From Acutalibacteraceae bacterium (GTDB lineage: Bacteria; Bacillota; Clostridia; Oscillospirales; Acutalibacteraceae): 64,000 nt of DNA. The notes beneath the pieces are model-generated. The model was not told the DNA's origin. It made no database searches and saw only the letters and a list, made by a program, of their open reading frames with translations. This document shows, piece after piece, positions 11,176-41,336 of the stretch (positions are counted from its first letter, which is position 1; every line of letters begins with the position of its first letter). The position numbers and the translations under genes are program-made. Location: assembly GCA_045534165.1 (NCBI GenBank), contig JAZSJD010000032.1:2942-66941 (forward strand), in the 5' to 3' direction.

Positions 11176-11206
11176 GTAGCACTACCCTGAAAAGGAGTTG
11201 GATATT

Positions 11207-12079
11207 TTGGCTAAGAAAGAAAAGATGCCGAAGGATACATACAATCCTGAAATGGAAAAGTATGGTGTCCGTACTACGGCAAAGAAAGTAAGAAAACATA
11301 AGCTGCTTCTGAGAATAACGGTTATTATTCTTGCTTTGTTGCTTCTGTTCCTTGCGATTTTCTTCGGATGTATAACTTATGCAAAACAGGCAGGTCGATT
11401 TACAGTTAACCTTGACCCTGATGCAATTGAAAAATATGGTATTACACTCTGTGAAAGTTATGATCAGGCCTATGGTTTAGGTGCATGGGCAAACGGTGGC
11501 ACAGGACCGGACGGAAAACCAACCGCTGACAGTAACTATGAATCAGGCGTTTTAATCCGCGGTGCAGCCGTTGAAAATATGGATAACATTACGGAAGAAT
11601 GGTTGCCGGAAGATGTTGACAGCGGTAATCATTCAGGCAGTCACCATGGTGATGCAAACAAAGATGGTGAAATTGACTACATAGCATATACCTTCTATCT
11701 CAAAAATGTAGGTAGAGAGGATGCAGACTATAATGTTTCAATTGATGTCCTTTCAGTAGACCTTGGTGCTGACGAAGCAGTCAGAGTAAAGGTTTACAGA
11801 AACGGTGAACCGATTACTTACGGTAAAAAACCTGTCAAGGGTACCGAAAAAGATAAATATGCAAAATTTGGTATTGACCAGTTCTTTGTTAAAGAAGACA
11901 AGGTTATGGATAGAAAGATAACCAATTTTAAAACAGGCTCGGTTGACAAATATACAGTTGTTATCTGGCTTGAAGGATGGGATCCTGAATGTGTTGATAA
12001 TATTATGGGAGGAGAGGTTAAGCTGTCTATGATGTTCCATATTATAGACAAAGAAGCCGAAAACGGGGAGCTTGTTTAG
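11207..12079 (+). CDS. P1: single-pass membrane protein with a C-terminal domain paralogous to P2 (possible fibre base/anchor subunit)
   Basis: A basic cytoplasmic N-terminus is followed by the TM helix LLLRITVIILALLLLFLAIFFGCITYA. The C-terminal motif VVIWLEGWDPECVDNIMGGEVKLSMMF parallels YLWLEGNDADCSMLEFDVAGEDVKFAMTL of the next gene. The start is ambiguous: TTG 11198, TTG 11207 (9 nt after AAAGGAG) or ATG 11225. Confidence 0.6.
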   Translation: MAKKEKMPKDTYNPEMEKYGVRTTAKKVRKHKLLLRITVIILALLLLFLAIFFGCITYAKQAGRFTVNLDPDAIEKYGITLCESYDQAYGLGAWANGGTGPDGKPTADSNYESGVLIRGAAVENMDNITEEWLPEDVDSGNHSGSHHGDANKDGEIDYIAYTFYLKNVGREDADYNVSIDVLSVDLGADEAVRVKVYRNGEPITYGKKPVKGTEKDKYAKFGIDQFFVKEDKVMDRKITNFKTGSVDKYTVVIWLEGWDPECVDNIMGGEVKLSMMFHIIDKEAENGELV

Positions 12080-12223
12080 GAAAAAAGTGAACAACGCACT
12101 TTCTTAAATTAAGCAAGTTCCTTAAGTAACTTTTCTCCCCTTAAAATTTATCAACACATATTGGATATAAATTAAAAAAATGAAAGTAAAACTTTCAAAA
12201 AAATTTTTATGGAGGAATTATTC

Positions 12224-13039
12224 ATGAAAAAGACAATGAGAAAAAGTGCATTGCTTTCTTCAGTAGCAATGCTCATCGTATCAGCTATCGTTCTTACATC
12301 AGCTACTTATGCATGGTTCTCATCATCAAAAGTTGTTGCTGTTGAAGAACTCGAAGCAAGCGTTAAAGTTTCCACTGGTCTCCTTATCTCAGTTGATAAG
12401 GGTGGCGAATGGGGCACACAGGTAGACTTCGCAGATGCAGTTGCTGTTAAAGACGGTTGGGGTGCTGGTTATCAGAGAGATATGGTATTTGATCCCGCAT
12501 CATCAGAAGATGCTTCAAACTGGATTACAGCTATCTATGACGAAGATACAAAAACTCTCGGCACATCACCTGCAGTAGTAGGTACAAACGTTGTTGCAGT
12601 TCCCCTTTGGGTAACAGGTCCTGTTGGCGAAACAGTTAAAGCTGTTGTTAACTTCGACGGTACAGACTCACAGGCAGCAAAATGTATGAAGTTTGCTCTT
12701 GTTCCCGCATCAGGCGATGCTGGTGACGTTATCGGTACATACGATAAAGCTGTTGCAGCTGAAGCTAATGCTGATAACACATTCATGGGCGTTTCAGCAG
12801 CAGGTTCATCAACAGCAACAGATGGCGCTTATGTAACAGACGGTGGTAAAAACATTTCTGAAGTTGCAGCAGACGGTGGTATCACATTCACAATCGCTGA
12901 AGGCACAACAACAGACGCTCCTATGATGTTTGTTGCATACCTCTGGCTCGAAGGTAACGACGCTGACTGTAGCATGCTTGAATTTGATGTTGCAGGTGAA
13001 GACGTTAAATTCGCTATGACACTTAACATCGTAGAATAA
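12224..13039 (+). CDS. P2: secreted TasA/camelysin-like protein with SipW-cognate-type signal peptide; candidate major fibre subunit
   Basis: The signal MKKTMRKSALLSSVAMLIVSAIVLTSATYA|WFSSSK resembles the TasA/CalY GTWA|AF-type junction. Composition is A/G/V/T/D-rich, with strong use of C-ending NNY codons (ttc, aac, gac, atc, tac). GGAGG RBS before ATG 12224. A 288-nt hairpin-containing spacer follows. Confidence 0.7.
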   Translation: MKKTMRKSALLSSVAMLIVSAIVLTSATYAWFSSSKVVAVEELEASVKVSTGLLISVDKGGEWGTQVDFADAVAVKDGWGAGYQRDMVFDPASSEDASNWITAIYDEDTKTLGTSPAVVGTNVVAVPLWVTGPVGETVKAVVNFDGTDSQAAKCMKFALVPASGDAGDVIGTYDKAVAAEANADNTFMGVSAAGSSTATDGAYVTDGGKNISEVAADGGITFTIAEGTTTDAPMMFVAYLWLEGNDADCSMLEFDVAGEDVKFAMTLNIVE

Positions 13040-13106
13040 TTAATTTGAATCAATTATATTTTAGTGATTGTTCAACTTTAGAGTTATAAACATAGCTCGT
13101 TAAATC

Positions 13107-39637: not shown

Positions 39638-39647
39638 AATTTAATTA

Positions 39648-39675
39648 ATGGGCCGAGCAGACTCGGTCCATTTTA
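39648..39675 (+). terminator. intrinsic terminator after P6
   Basis: ATGGGCCGAG / CTCGGTCCAT 10-bp stem (one G-U pair) with loop CAGA, followed by TTTT. Confidence 0.7.
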
Positions 39676-39692
39676 ACTAATATGCAGAGTAG

Positions 39693-41336
39693 GTGACTCC
39701 CTTGGCAAAATCAAAGAAAAGTAACAAGAAAAATGCAAAGAAAAACAGTAACTACAAAAATCAGGTAATTGAAAAGAAAGTTCCTAAAAAGTCTGAAAAA
39801 AATCAGAAAGAAGCTGAATATAAAGCTAAGCAAAAGGAAAAACAAAAGAAAAAGGAAGAAAAATTGCTTGCCAAAAAGCAAAAGGCTGAAGCTAAACTTC
39901 TCAAGAAAGAAGAAAAGAAAAGATTAAAAGAAGAAAGCAAAAAGCCCAAGAAACCTGCAAAAGAAAGTAAAGTTGAAAAGAAAAAAGAAAAAACCAAAGA
40001 AGTAAAAAAAGCAGTTTCTTTGCCTGAAAAGGTTGAAGAAAAGCCGATAGAAAAGGTAAAAGAAGAAATTACTCCTGTTGAAGAAATAAAAACCGAGACC
40101 GTTGAAGTGATTCCCGAAACAGTGGAAGAAACTCCTGAAGTTGTTGAAACAGTTGAAGAAACAGCAGAACCTGAGGAAACCGTCGAAACAGTTGAAGAAA
40201 CAGCAGAACCTGAGGAAACTGTTGAAACAGTTGAAGAAACAGCAGAACCTGAGGAAACCGTCGAAACAGTTGAAGAAACAGTAGAACCTGAGGAAACTGT
40301 TGAAACAGTTGAAGAAACAGCAGAACCTGAGGAAACTATTGAGACAGTTGAAGAAACAGCAGAACCTGAGGAAACTTTCGAAACAGTTGAAACAACAGAA
40401 GAACCTGCTGAACCTGAAAAAGTAAGTGCAGAAACAGCAGAGGAAATCCCCCAGGTTGTTTCACAAATAACTTTTGAAGAAGTAGTGAAAGAAAATTCTG
40501 AGGTTGTCGTTGAAGAAACACCCGAAAAAATTCAGCCTACAGAAACACCGGAAGAAATTGCTGAAGAAATTCAGCCTGCAGATATCCCCGAAGAACAGCC
40601 CGAAGTTGTTGTTCAGGATGTAGCAGATCAGGAACCTGAACCTTCAGCAGAACCCGAAAAAGAAAAGGTTGAAGAAAAGAAAGAAGAACCCAAGGACAAA
40701 GAATCAGCACCTCAGAAGCAACCGATAAAAATAAAAGAACTTATTTCAAAAATTGACTTCAAGAAAGTAACAAAAAAACAAATCATTGTGATTGTCGTTG
40801 CTGTATTGACTATTGCAGCATTAATTTCTGTTATTTCTGTTCTTGATTTTAACGTAAAAGATTCTGTATATTATCCTGCAAAAGTTTATGAGAATCAGAT
40901 CATAACTTATGATAGCAGTGAAGTAAACATGATTGCAATTTCAGATGAACAACAAGCAGAATTTGTTAAAAATACAAACGCAAAAGGAAATACAGGAAAG
41001 TTTTCATTCTATGTAAACACCGGTATCAGCATTGAAGATATAGATTCAATGATTCCTATTGCAATTTCTAACCCCTCAGTAAATAATTGTGTTCTTATTT
41101 GTAACATTGTTGACAGCGATGGTGTGATTGTTTACCGTACATCAGGCATCGCCCCCGGTAGATATAAGAGCAGTGTTAAATTCTCAAATTTCCCTGATTA
41201 CGGTGAAAATGAATACACAATTTATGTATCTGCATACCGTACAGAAGAAACTGAAACAGGGGTACAATCTGTAAGAATCGGAACGCAGAAAGCAAAAATT
41301 AAATTAATGGTAGGAAACGATTATATGTCAGAATAA
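39693..41336 (+). CDS. single-pass membrane protein: basic K-rich block, acidic tandem-repeat block, TM helix, ~150-aa C-terminal beta-rich domain
   Basis: GTG 39693 or TTG 39702 start. About 110 aa are K-rich (KKSNKKNAKKNS...KKKEKTKEVKK) and about 250 aa are E/T/V/P-rich. TM helix IIVIVVAVLTIAALISVISVL, then a non-repetitive C-terminal domain. Confidence 0.7.
   Translation: MTPLAKSKKSNKKNAKKNSNYKNQVIEKKVPKKSEKNQKEAEYKAKQKEKQKKKEEKLLAKKQKAEAKLLKKEEKKRLKEESKKPKKPAKESKVEKKKEKTKEVKKAVSLPEKVEEKPIEKVKEEITPVEEIKTETVEVIPETVEETPEVVETVEETAEPEETVETVEETAEPEETVETVEETAEPEETVETVEETVEPEETVETVEETAEPEETIETVEETAEPEETFETVETTEEPAEPEKVSAETAEEIPQVVSQITFEEVVKENSEVVVEETPEKIQPTETPEEIAEEIQPADIPEEQPEVVVQDVADQEPEPSAEPEKEKVEEKKEEPKDKESAPQKQPIKIKELISKIDFKKVTKKQIIVIVVAVLTIAALISVISVLDFNVKDSVYYPAKVYENQIITYDSSEVNMIAISDEQQAEFVKNTNAKGNTGKFSFYVNTGISIEDIDSMIPIAISNPSVNNCVLICNIVDSDGVIVYRTSGIAPGRYKSSVKFSNFPDYGENEYTIYVSAYRTEETETGVQSVRIGTQKAKIKLMVGNDYMSE
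40146..40379 (+). repeat. six near-perfect in-frame 39-bp tandem repeats (ETVEETAEPEETV units) plus one degenerate copy
   Basis: The unit gaaacagttgaagaaacagcagaacctgaggaaaccgtc starts at 40146, 40185, 40224, 40263, 40302 and 40341, with 0-3 substitutions per copy. A degenerate seventh copy begins at 40380. Confidence 0.9.

Follow-up and report, generated by a model that had tools for sequence, protein, structure and literature searches.

An McrB-type GTPase among signal peptidases and exported proteins: a candidate CoCoPALM-type operon for a surface fibre in gut Clostridia

What is a GTPase related to the restriction protein McrB doing in an operon of signal peptidases and exported proteins? 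The question is raised by a locus in a 64,000-nucleotide stretch of DNA, hereafter the window, from an Acutalibacteraceae bacterium (GenBank assembly GCA_045534165.1, contig JAZSJD010000032.1, positions 2,942 to 66,941 of the forward strand). The locus is a 16-gene operon, all of it on the + strand between positions 10291 and 41336 with short gaps or overlaps between neighbours. Its products include an EAL-domain protein, six small exported proteins (G1, G2, G7, G10, G12 and G13), four signal peptidases (SipW-a to SipW-d), a membrane McrB-like GTPase and its DUF2357 partner, a giant secreted protein and a membrane protein, G14 (Table 1). We propose, with a probability of roughly 55%, that this is a complete operon of the type named CoCoPALM by Bell et al., in which a surface fibre linked to cyclic di-guanosine monophosphate (c-di-GMP) displays or anchors a giant adhesin-like protein and is coupled to a membrane GTPase module derived from McrB and McrC. 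An initial annotation of the window had suggested a fibre or display apparatus, and from the parts, their homologies and their co-conservation this stays the best reading.

Gene order and relatives of the locus

The McrB-like protein served as the query in a scan for the locus that covered a single genome of each GTDB species. Sixty-seven species were found, nearly all of them gut or rumen metagenome-assembled genomes (MAGs) of Acutalibacteraceae, Oscillospiraceae or 'Ruminococcus sp. CAG:488/563'. Every locus with sufficient flank has the same upstream half, in which the EAL gene is followed by G1, one or two G2-type genes (at times with an extra SipW gene), a SipW gene, the McrB-like gene, the DUF2357 gene and the giant gene. 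All 67 species, Acholeplasma laidlawii and the metagenome loci have the peptidase gene directly upstream of the McrB-like gene, and the DUF2357 gene adjoins the McrB-like gene in the loci examined, with the exception of one, L074, which is taken up below. The giant gene stands behind the DUF2357 gene in every locus that extends that far, its product ranging from 2,011 to 5,906 amino acids (aa), and G7 is the first gene after it in every locus seen. The downstream half, Giant-G7-SipW-SipW-G10-SipW-G12-G13-G14, is kept in 21 metagenome loci, many from the human gut, and in loci with a short giant gene; conservation of gene order ends past G14. When the metagenome scan was led by the window's own G7 it confirmed nothing, this sequence being too divergent, and a typical family member was used for the counts. 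Together these results describe one co-conserved unit, as had first been supposed, in which neither the giant gene nor the McrB pair varies on its own.

The components have evolved at different rates. Across the 67 species the McrB-like GTPase is 69-94% identical and G2 27-93%, as expected for a conserved motor combined with surface-exposed, fast-evolving subunits. The GTPase family is also large, with more than 8,000 clusters at 90% identity among the matches listed, and 768 clusters at 50% identity (E<=1e-30). Four contigs (L027, L031, L032 and L038) are labelled Bacteroidaceae, Eggerthellaceae, Coriobacteriaceae and Bacteroides faecis, and their McrB-like proteins are about 72-73% identical to that of the window, as in most Acutalibacteraceae loci. 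These odd labels most likely reflect mis-binning of MAGs rather than horizontal transfer.

Distant full-length relatives of the GTPase (about 34-40% identity) led to A. laidlawii, for which there is a complete genome (CP103951.1), and to a MAG labelled Roseburia. The A. laidlawii set contains two GGDEF-EAL proteins, a G1-like protein, two G2-like proteins (TYAWL/TFAWF, WVEGWDAD), a SipW peptidase, the McrB-like protein, a 777-aa DUF2357/coiled-coil protein, a second module of SipW and small exported proteins bearing the A|[WY]F junction (awf) and a 2,476-aa giant protein. The Roseburia-labelled MAG encodes a 3,463-aa giant protein with Glug, FIVAR and Dockerin domains. Gene order is rearranged in both, and the combination of genes is the same.

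Small exported proteins and their signal peptidases

All four peptidases score above the cut-off of TIGR02228 (sigpep_I_arch, 51.85 bits), the model for archaeal-type signal peptidase I (Table 1). A four-way alignment showed S58, H100, D119 and D125 to be invariant, with the boxes S-M-x-P, H-R and G-D common to all, so that the four SipW-type peptidases with Ser, His and GD boxes first recognised in the window are borne out. On the Bacillus SipW equivalog model, NF046067, they reach 45-123 bits where 190 are required. Because the scores fall short of this cut-off, we classify the four by sequence as archaeal/SipW-type enzymes with intact Ser/His/Asp, and not as SipW orthologues. SipW-a has two transmembrane (TM) helices and then an acidic C-terminal tail of about 100 aa, encoded in part by 18-bp repeats. 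This tail could be an electrostatic partner of the Lys-rich helix of the DUF2357 protein and of the Lys-rich N-terminal region of G14. The tail follows the second TM helix, and the A. laidlawii counterpart of SipW-a carries a charged coiled tail.

The likely substrates of these enzymes are the small proteins. In five of the six, as originally noted, the hydrophobic helix ends in a junction of the SipW type, A/C|[WY]F, read by eye in the pattern h-region-[TS]-x-[AC]|[WY]F: TYAWF in G2, TLCWF in G7, TEAWF in G10, TSAYF in G12 and SFAWF in G13. The SipW-cognate signal model TIGR04088 gave 18.1 bits on the N-terminus of G2 against a cut-off of 19 and did not match the other four junction proteins; TIGR04087-04090 as a whole yielded isolated sub-threshold matches only. 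G1 is the sole small protein that lacks the junction. Based on these features, the small proteins are SipW-type substrates by signal peptide and genomic context, and not demonstrable members of the TasA family.

To relate the six to one another, family profiles built from the fetched loci, including 119 G2-family members, were compared with hhalign. G1 and G2 align over their full length (probability 100%, E 2.5e-40, 229 columns), from the signal-anchor to the C-terminus and including the motif W.EG.D..C. G2 also aligns with G13 (99.2%, E 1.6e-19, 151 columns) and G10 with G13 (96.4%, 123 columns). The match between G7 and G2 (96.6-96.8%, 46 columns) is confined to the signal and the first 15 or so mature residues, and the best match of G12, to G10, is weak (45.7%, 97 columns). 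By these comparisons G1, G2, G10 and G13 form a superfamily of their own, to which G7 and G12 belong more loosely.

Within this superfamily G1 stands apart. It has a cytoplasmic N-terminal extension and reads F[GC]C.[TS]Y.N[KQ]AG where G2 has T[YF]AWF. Since it aligns with G2 along its entire length while the cleavage junction has been replaced, G1 is a membrane-retained paralogue of G2. It is kept in all loci, that of A. laidlawii included, and we propose from its sequence that G1 serves as an uncleavable base or anchor subunit in the membrane.

G2 itself is likely the major subunit. Its family carries no Pfam annotation. Its layout is a SipW-type signal, a conserved N-terminal strand, a beta-sandwich body and the C-terminal W.EG.D..C; the signal and N-terminal residues are invariant, and the signal-anchor with the next 20 or so residues is the most conserved part. 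AlphaFold (AF2) models made with a 71-sequence alignment are confident beta-sandwiches, with a pLDDT (predicted local distance difference test score) of 80.9 for the full-length protein and, for the mature domain, a pLDDT of 85.6 and a predicted template modelling score (pTM) of 0.87. In the mature model the N-terminal segment forms an edge strand whose confidence is below that of the core. Such a strand is what would be expected of a contact between subunits, without being proof of one. That the G2 and G7 families have an N-terminal strand in common fits donor-strand polymerisation, to which the alignments and models would speak indirectly. G7, G10 and G13 are candidate minor subunits.

A hairpin offers a further indication of the role of G2. 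Behind the last G2-family gene, a hairpin equivalent to that of the window occurs in 69 of the 69 loci checked, where the median best 45-nt minimum free energy (MFE) is -26 kcal/mol. In a subsample of 23 loci the mean best 45-nt MFE was -24.8 kcal/mol; shuffled sequences gave -12.0 +/- 2.6 and random windows -12.6 +/- 2.7. Stem sequences vary by lineage and most copies are missing a U-tract. The hairpin is probably a partial terminator or attenuator, or a stabiliser of the 3' end, that raises the dosage of G2. Such a dosage-raising hairpin is what one usually finds behind the gene of a major structural subunit.

The GTPase module, the giant protein and the c-di-GMP link

The membrane McrB-like NTPase pair reported from the first inspection withstood closer analysis. 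The 516-aa protein consists of a conserved N-terminal region of 60 aa, a TM helix at residues 66-84 (hydropathy peak 3.54) followed by RKYVKVRK, a helix resembling FtsB and FtsL, and the AAA+ domain; the TM region is kept in all homologues. By the positive-inside rule the N-terminal 60 residues may face outward. Matches of this N-terminus to the FtsB type are weak and below all cut-offs (E 0.043 for Pfam FtsL_2 at residues 76-146, and E 0.075-0.1 for the FtsL models of NCBIfam; residues 61-146 overall), in keeping with such a homology. The AAA+ domain has a Walker A motif (GISGTGKTS), a Walker B motif (ILDEMN) and the NxD signature INNDDST, and a profile of the family run against PDB sequences matched E. 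coli McrB alone (E 4.6e-6). In the window the signature region reads GTINNDDST, in which NNDD by itself is ambiguous; the relatives, compared by eye and unaligned, read N-x-D-[DEQ]-S-T (ANSDQST, SNKDEST, ANKDDST, VNVDDST). The Asp conserved at position 3 and followed by D, E or Q across relatives therefore places the protein in the NxD clade as described by Bell et al. (2024).

The partner protein of 737 aa had no Pfam match at full length, with its low-complexity tail included. Once the charged tail was removed (first 360 residues), DUF2357 matched residues 66-163 with 41.2 bits (cut-off 23.3). Within residues 1-360 no nuclease family was found even at E<=1, and PD-(D/E)xK was not detected. 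The tail of about 390 aa is rich in K, E, R and A (27% K+R, 19% D+E), helical in the manner of a coiled coil or single helix, and encoded in part by 66-bp tandem repeats. The locus does not match an McrBC type IV restriction system, no nuclease being detected in the DUF2357 protein and the N-terminus of the McrB-like protein being a membrane anchor. In A. laidlawii the DUF2357 partner (L072:11552-13885) has two helix-hairpin motifs similar to Rho_N/HeH past its coiled coil (KKNDLISMLAKMGY, KKKDLIALIRNKQ), with a faint match to Pfam Rho_N; they are absent from the window protein. This gives a hint, from sequence, that in A. laidlawii nucleic acid may be bound by the long helix at its cytoplasmic end.

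The giant gene is a real open reading frame (ORF) of 5,604 codons for a GLUG beta-helix protein, as initially annotated. The product has a classical Sec signal (…ALA|A), about eight tandem beta-helix modules of the GLUG/M26_N type and no recognisable anchor. Its Pfam matches are to Peptidase_M26_N (39.7 bits, cut-off 27.7) and, marginally, to Glug (21.4 and 21.6 bits, cut-off 20.5). Five to six module starts follow the pattern G.G[TS]..NP[YF].[IV], and the motif GG[ILV][VAIL][GA] occurs 28 times. Among syntenic loci the differences in giant length (2,011-5,906 aa) apparently correspond to the number of beta-helix modules.

G14 closes the conserved order. It was first described as a repeat-tailed membrane protein; the TM helix (residues 364-382) and the repeats are real, and the repeats precede the helix, so that there is no tail. 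A Lys-rich region and then acidic 13-aa repeats lie N-terminal to the TM helix, and a domain of about 165 aa follows it. The repeat array spans 40142-40407 (39 bp x 6.8 copies, 92% matches). We infer that the repeat region is cytoplasmic and the C-terminal domain extracellular. No family was matched in Pfam and NCBIfam scans. Homologues at the same position in L076-L094 have 287-294 aa, compared with 547 aa in the window; we attribute the extra length to the Lys-rich region and the acidic repeats, which would suggest a recent repeat expansion.

The link to c-di-GMP comes from the first gene of the unit, whose product is a stand-alone EAL domain (Pfam EAL, 152.7 bits) and which lies directly upstream of G1 in every locus with sufficient flank. 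Compared with the GGDEF-EAL proteins of L072-L074, the window protein has YYTRVQ in place of YEALLR and substitutions at the N/E/K/E/Q positions; the EAL proteins of close relatives keep the Glu and have lost other positions. In the distant systems (A. laidlawii, the Roseburia-labelled MAG and L074) its place is taken by membrane-bound GGDEF-EAL proteins whose EAL motifs are intact. Judged by these residues the window protein is catalytically degenerate, and we speculate that it is a candidate c-di-GMP sensor or receptor. The whole window was scanned against Rfam, and neither a c-di-GMP riboswitch nor any other RNA turned up.

Because the EAL gene sits behind a promoter-like site at 10272 and is co-conserved, we place the start of the unit there. 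The 15 genes that the initial annotation had listed on the + strand, with short gaps or overlaps, all correspond to ORFs at their given positions; the EAL gene had been missed, as had the paralogy of G1 and G2 and the hairpin after G2. Its boundaries stood in part. The promoter-like site matches the consensus at 11 of 12 positions and is the best in 10000-19000, the total of such sites being no higher than in shuffles, so that it counts as a consensus match only. At about 39650 and 41368 the sequence shows hairpins, neither of which the terminator scan called; the loop at 41368 is too long for the criteria of the scan. The scan placed the hairpin at 35187-35216 on the - strand owing to the position of a T-run, and its stem is palindromic.

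Table 1. Features of the operon and its boundaries in the window.
Feature	Position	Strand	Description
Sigma-70-like promoter	10272-10300	+	TTGACA, 17-nt spacer, TG-extended TACAAT; 11/12 matches
EAL-domain protein	10291-11175	+	Pfam EAL; first gene of unit
G1	11198-12079	+	Uncleaved G2 paralogue; TM residues 40-58
G2	12209-13039	+	SipW-type signal (…SATYA|WFSS); proposed major subunit
GC-rich hairpin, 12 bp (8 GC)	13153-13182	+	3' of G2
SipW-a	13328-14290	+	Archaeal/ER-type signal peptidase I; TIGR02228 80.9 bits
McrB-like GTPase, 516 aa	14352-15902	+	TM 66-84, AAA+ domain
DUF2357 (McrC-like) protein, 737 aa	15956-18169	+	DUF2357 match and charged helical tail
Giant secreted protein, 5,604 aa	18353-35167	+	Sec signal, Peptidase_M26_N, Glug
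Palindromic GC-rich hairpin, 12 bp	35187-35216	undefined	Terminator scan; directly 3' of giant gene
G7	35254-35889	+	Minor subunit candidate (…TLC|WFAV)
SipW-b	35889-36464	+	TIGR02228 113.9 bits; catalytic boxes; conserved position
SipW-c	36418-36939	+	TIGR02228 105.9 bits; catalytic boxes; conserved position
G10	36936-37721	+	Minor subunit candidate (…TEA|WFGS); Thr/Glu-rich insert; conserved position
SipW-d	37718-38245	+	SNSMQP, THRIV, GDK; TIGR02228 70.0 bits, Peptidase_S26 40.5 bits; conserved position
G12	38175-38996	+	Exported small protein (…TSA|YFYK); conserved position
G13	39014-39637	+	Minor subunit candidate (…SFA|WFIM); G2 homologue; conserved position
Short hairpin GGGCCGAG-CAGA-CTCGGTCC, weak T-tract	39650-39672	+	Between G13 and G14; read directly from sequence
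G14, 547 aa	39693-41336	+	Single-pass membrane protein; last conserved gene
Terminator-like hairpin ACCGAAGA…TCTTCGGT, then T-run	41368-41400	+	Unit end; read directly from sequence

Upstream of the operon, a ThuA-like gene and two GFO/IDH/MocA oxidoreductase genes (7239-10149) are syntenic in the closest relatives (L001-L003); the operon therefore has a stable position on the chromosome and does not lie in a mobile island. Downstream, a short possible ORF on the - strand (MSEEEYLKARISELEKNVKKL…) with a Shine-Dalgarno-like sequence was seen by reading only, at 41400-41500, in the gap past the last operon hairpin. A near-perfect AT-rich palindrome with a 20-bp stem (42207-42252) is situated between two convergent genes, 41545-42210 (+, 4Fe-4S protein) and 42249-43064 (-), and is probably a bidirectional terminator.

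Proposed assembly, alternatives and known systems

How might these parts work together? Precursors exported by Sec would be held in the membrane by their unusually conserved signal-anchor until the SipW peptidases cleave at A|[WY]F and free the conserved N-terminal strand. By analogy with TasA, archaeal bundling pili and chaperone-usher pili, the freed strand would insert into the next subunit by donor-strand complementation. G2 would form the shaft, its dosage raised by the conserved hairpin behind its gene, and G7, G10, G12 and G13 would be low-copy adaptor or tip subunits linking the shaft to the giant protein, while the uncleavable G1 would stay in the membrane as the base. More speculatively, a hexamer of the McrB-like protein with a DUF2357 plug at the cytoplasmic face might drive or license, in a GTP-dependent manner, the incorporation of subunits or the export of the giant protein. 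The ring might communicate through its TM/FtsB-like segment and N-terminal 60 residues, and the EAL protein might relay c-di-GMP status to it.

A bolder form of this proposal, which we offer tentatively and hold to be somewhat doubtful, is that the McrB-type ring, with the DUF2357 protein and its charged helix, is the motor or gate of a new NTP-dependent, c-di-GMP-controlled pathway. This would assemble SipW-freed donor-strand subunits of a new fold family and giant adhesins in monoderms, from gut Clostridia to the wall-less Acholeplasma, as a third energy-coupled route beside type IV and sortase pili.

Several points weigh against the assembly of a fibre in this way. The small proteins had at first been called TasA/camelysin-like, and this family label had to be dropped. 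Peptidase_M73 was absent from scans of the six window proteins and of 21 second-module proteins from several lineages, and no small protein passed the cut-offs for TasA/camelysin, TapA or BsaA, the best scores being 14.7 bits for TapA (cut-off 80) and 18.5 bits for BsaA (cut-off 60; on G13). Neither of the two good G2 models had a Foldseek match in the PDB at E<=1e-3, and TasA was listed for neither. The full-length model led to the archaeal bundling pilin 7ueg (E 4.6e-3, TM-scores 0.20/0.27) and then to PapE, FocH, CS20 and PapA, all of them weak, while the mature model yielded generic jelly rolls, all above E 0.04, with TasA and 7ueg outside the top 50. The claim of a TasA-like fold was given up because the better, mature model (pTM 0.87) weakened the pilin matches. 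Nothing relevant came from searching PDB sequences with G2, G10 and G13, whether as profiles or as single sequences, and a Foldseek search of the G2 model against a viral structure library returned weak tail-fibre or jelly-roll noise only. With no PDB neighbour of significance for the mature G2 model, donor-strand polymerisation would rest on analogy.

Other objections concern the remaining parts. Comparison by hhalign of 43 giant C-termini (the C-terminal 260 aa in the window giant) with every small-protein family revealed no relation, which speaks against a pilin-like acceptor domain at the end of the giant protein. In the locus L074 (GCA_964017915.1) an McrB-like gene is accompanied by G1/G2-like genes and a likely peptidase gene, while DUF2357 and giant genes do not adjoin it; this variant of the system is either reduced or split. 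The closest relatives of the GTPase are found in defence-type systems (PDC-M26A, 121 bits; the CoCoNuT clade). The literature holds no experiment on any member of this system. Finally, no NTPase is known to be required by the SipW/TasA-type and donor-strand fibres of monoderms. In L074, a sigma-70 factor gene and a GGDEF-EAL gene lie upstream, a PRC-barrel gene and unrelated genes follow the McrB-like gene, and an S26 peptidase is encoded 8 kb downstream.

The explanation next in probability to ours dispenses with a fibre. The small proteins and G1 could form a short membrane-proximal stalk, collar or sheath in a system that exports and anchors the giant protein, with the McrB/DUF2357 pair threading it, folding it or timing its release. 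An anchor-less giant protein is indeed an invariant component of the system, even though it differs in family (Glug, FIVAR/Dockerin or without a Pfam domain) and in length (2,011-5,906 aa), and G7 always lies directly behind its gene. The occurrence of the system in wall-less Acholeplasma, where anchoring to a wall is impossible, and the lack of a significant structural match between G2 and polymerising pilins are also in keeping with such an arrangement. However, the conserved G2 hairpin and the duplicated G2-type genes in many loci suggest a subunit of high copy number, which fits a polymer better; McrB-type AAA+ rings are not known to have secreted proteins as substrates, and the giant protein has an ordinary Sec signal. 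We consider this explanation unlikely, if a serious one.

Far less probable is an anti-phage or conflict system derived from McrBC, in which the surface proteins would be decoys or sensors and the membrane GTPase would transduce a signal of infection. The kinship just mentioned is its best argument: the other members of the NxD clade, the CoCoNuTs, are predicted defence systems (Bell et al. 2024), and the best PADLOC match of the GTPase is the candidate defence protein PDC-M26A. The surface components also evolve fast. Yet PADLOC matched the GTPase alone and no other component, no PD-(D/E)xK nuclease or other effector was found, the chromosomal position is fixed, with neighbours conserved in close relatives rather than those of a variable defence island, and 69-94% identity in the GTPase is not what defence genes typically show. 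Surface biology is indicated by the c-di-GMP enzymes and the giant adhesin-like proteins. As for the idea that unrelated units (an adhesin gene, a remnant of McrBC and an operon of SipW and substrates) happen to be neighbours in this genome, the hairpins behind G2, the giant gene and G13 could mark separate transcripts, but chance juxtaposition is effectively refuted because the whole gene order is conserved in dozens of genomes (67 species and metagenome contigs) and the set recurs, rearranged, in Acholeplasma and the Roseburia-labelled MAG.

If the fibre proposal is correct, the motor of the McrBC restriction enzyme has been domesticated to build surface structures, and fibres or giant adhesins would be assembled or controlled in a mechanistically new way in Gram-positive-type and wall-less bacteria. 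The system is very common, as the cluster counts and the 67 species indicate, and its hosts live in the guts of humans, ruminants and other animals, so that adhesion or aggregation of uncultured gut Clostridia may depend on it to a large extent. A. laidlawii provides a culturable host in which the hypothesis can be tested directly.

Among known systems, the tapA-sipW-tasA operon of B. subtilis and sipW-tasA-calY of B. cereus resemble the locus in having an archaeal-type peptidase beside exported beta-sandwich proteins with an aromatic residue just past the cleavage site. An accessory paralogue that anchors or nucleates has been proposed in both settings, TapA in B. subtilis and G1 here. The properties of TasA and TapA are taken from two reports (PMC9674648, PMC10151520) and general background. 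These operons differ in having three genes, one peptidase, no NTPase and no giant protein; furthermore, none of the small proteins here passes the models for Peptidase_M73, TapA or BsaA, and the peptidases are below the cut-off of the B. subtilis SipW equivalog. Pyrobaculum calidifontis AbpA (PDB 7ueg) is described as a TasA-like donor-strand pilin of archaeal bundling pili (PMC9245690). It was the best single Foldseek match of full-length G2, weak and lost with the mature model, and there is no sequence similarity.

Streptococcus pyogenes SipA/LepA offers a precedent for signal-peptidase-family proteins in pilus assembly, being encoded in sortase pilus operons and reportedly needed for polymerisation (PMC4049620). 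SipA is reported to be of the bacterial type, catalytically inactive and to work with sortases, whereas the four peptidases here are of the archaeal type and retain Ser/His/Asp. In the window translations, which were not searched systematically, neither a sortase nor an LPXTG motif stood out. This type of precedent may lie behind the wording 'pilus assembly factors' in the short description of CoCoPALM. Canonical McrBC and the CoCoNuTs share with the locus a homologous AAA+ GTPase and a DUF2357 partner. They differ in that here a membrane anchor replaces the DNA-binding N-domain, there is no nuclease, HEPN or other effector, and the partners are exported proteins and peptidases.

The closest likeness is to CoCoPALM. 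Bell et al. (eLife 2024, PMC11090510) describe a large clade of NxD-motif McrB GTPases and name these systems in a few sentences, deferring details to a later paper. By that short account, the locus resembles them in its NxD McrB GTPase with an N-terminal TM/FtsB-like helix, in its DUF2357 McrC with a long coiled-coil-type region and in the signal-peptidase-family proteins of the operon. We found the NxD signature, the TM fusion, DUF2357 with a coiled-coil-type region and the association with signal peptidases, and saw the FtsB homology weakly. Because these features agree apart from that weakly seen homology, we regard the locus as a member of a named, uncharacterised class. The novelty at first attached to the architecture is reduced accordingly, the association of McrB, McrC and signal peptidases having already been flagged by specialists. 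The text-form supplementary files of PMC11090510 do not mention CoCoPALM, and a literature search turned up no follow-up on it and nothing on SipW/TasA in Ruminococcus, Acholeplasma or Acutalibacteraceae. The published sentences, which report no experiments, make no reference to an EAL or GGDEF-EAL gene, the G1/G2/G10/G13 superfamily, a giant protein, a second module, G14 or a hairpin after G2. The biology is unusual, and to this brief mention our analysis adds an inventory of all the parts, a new protein superfamily of which one paralogue is anchored, a conserved hairpin in the RNA and a link to c-di-GMP.

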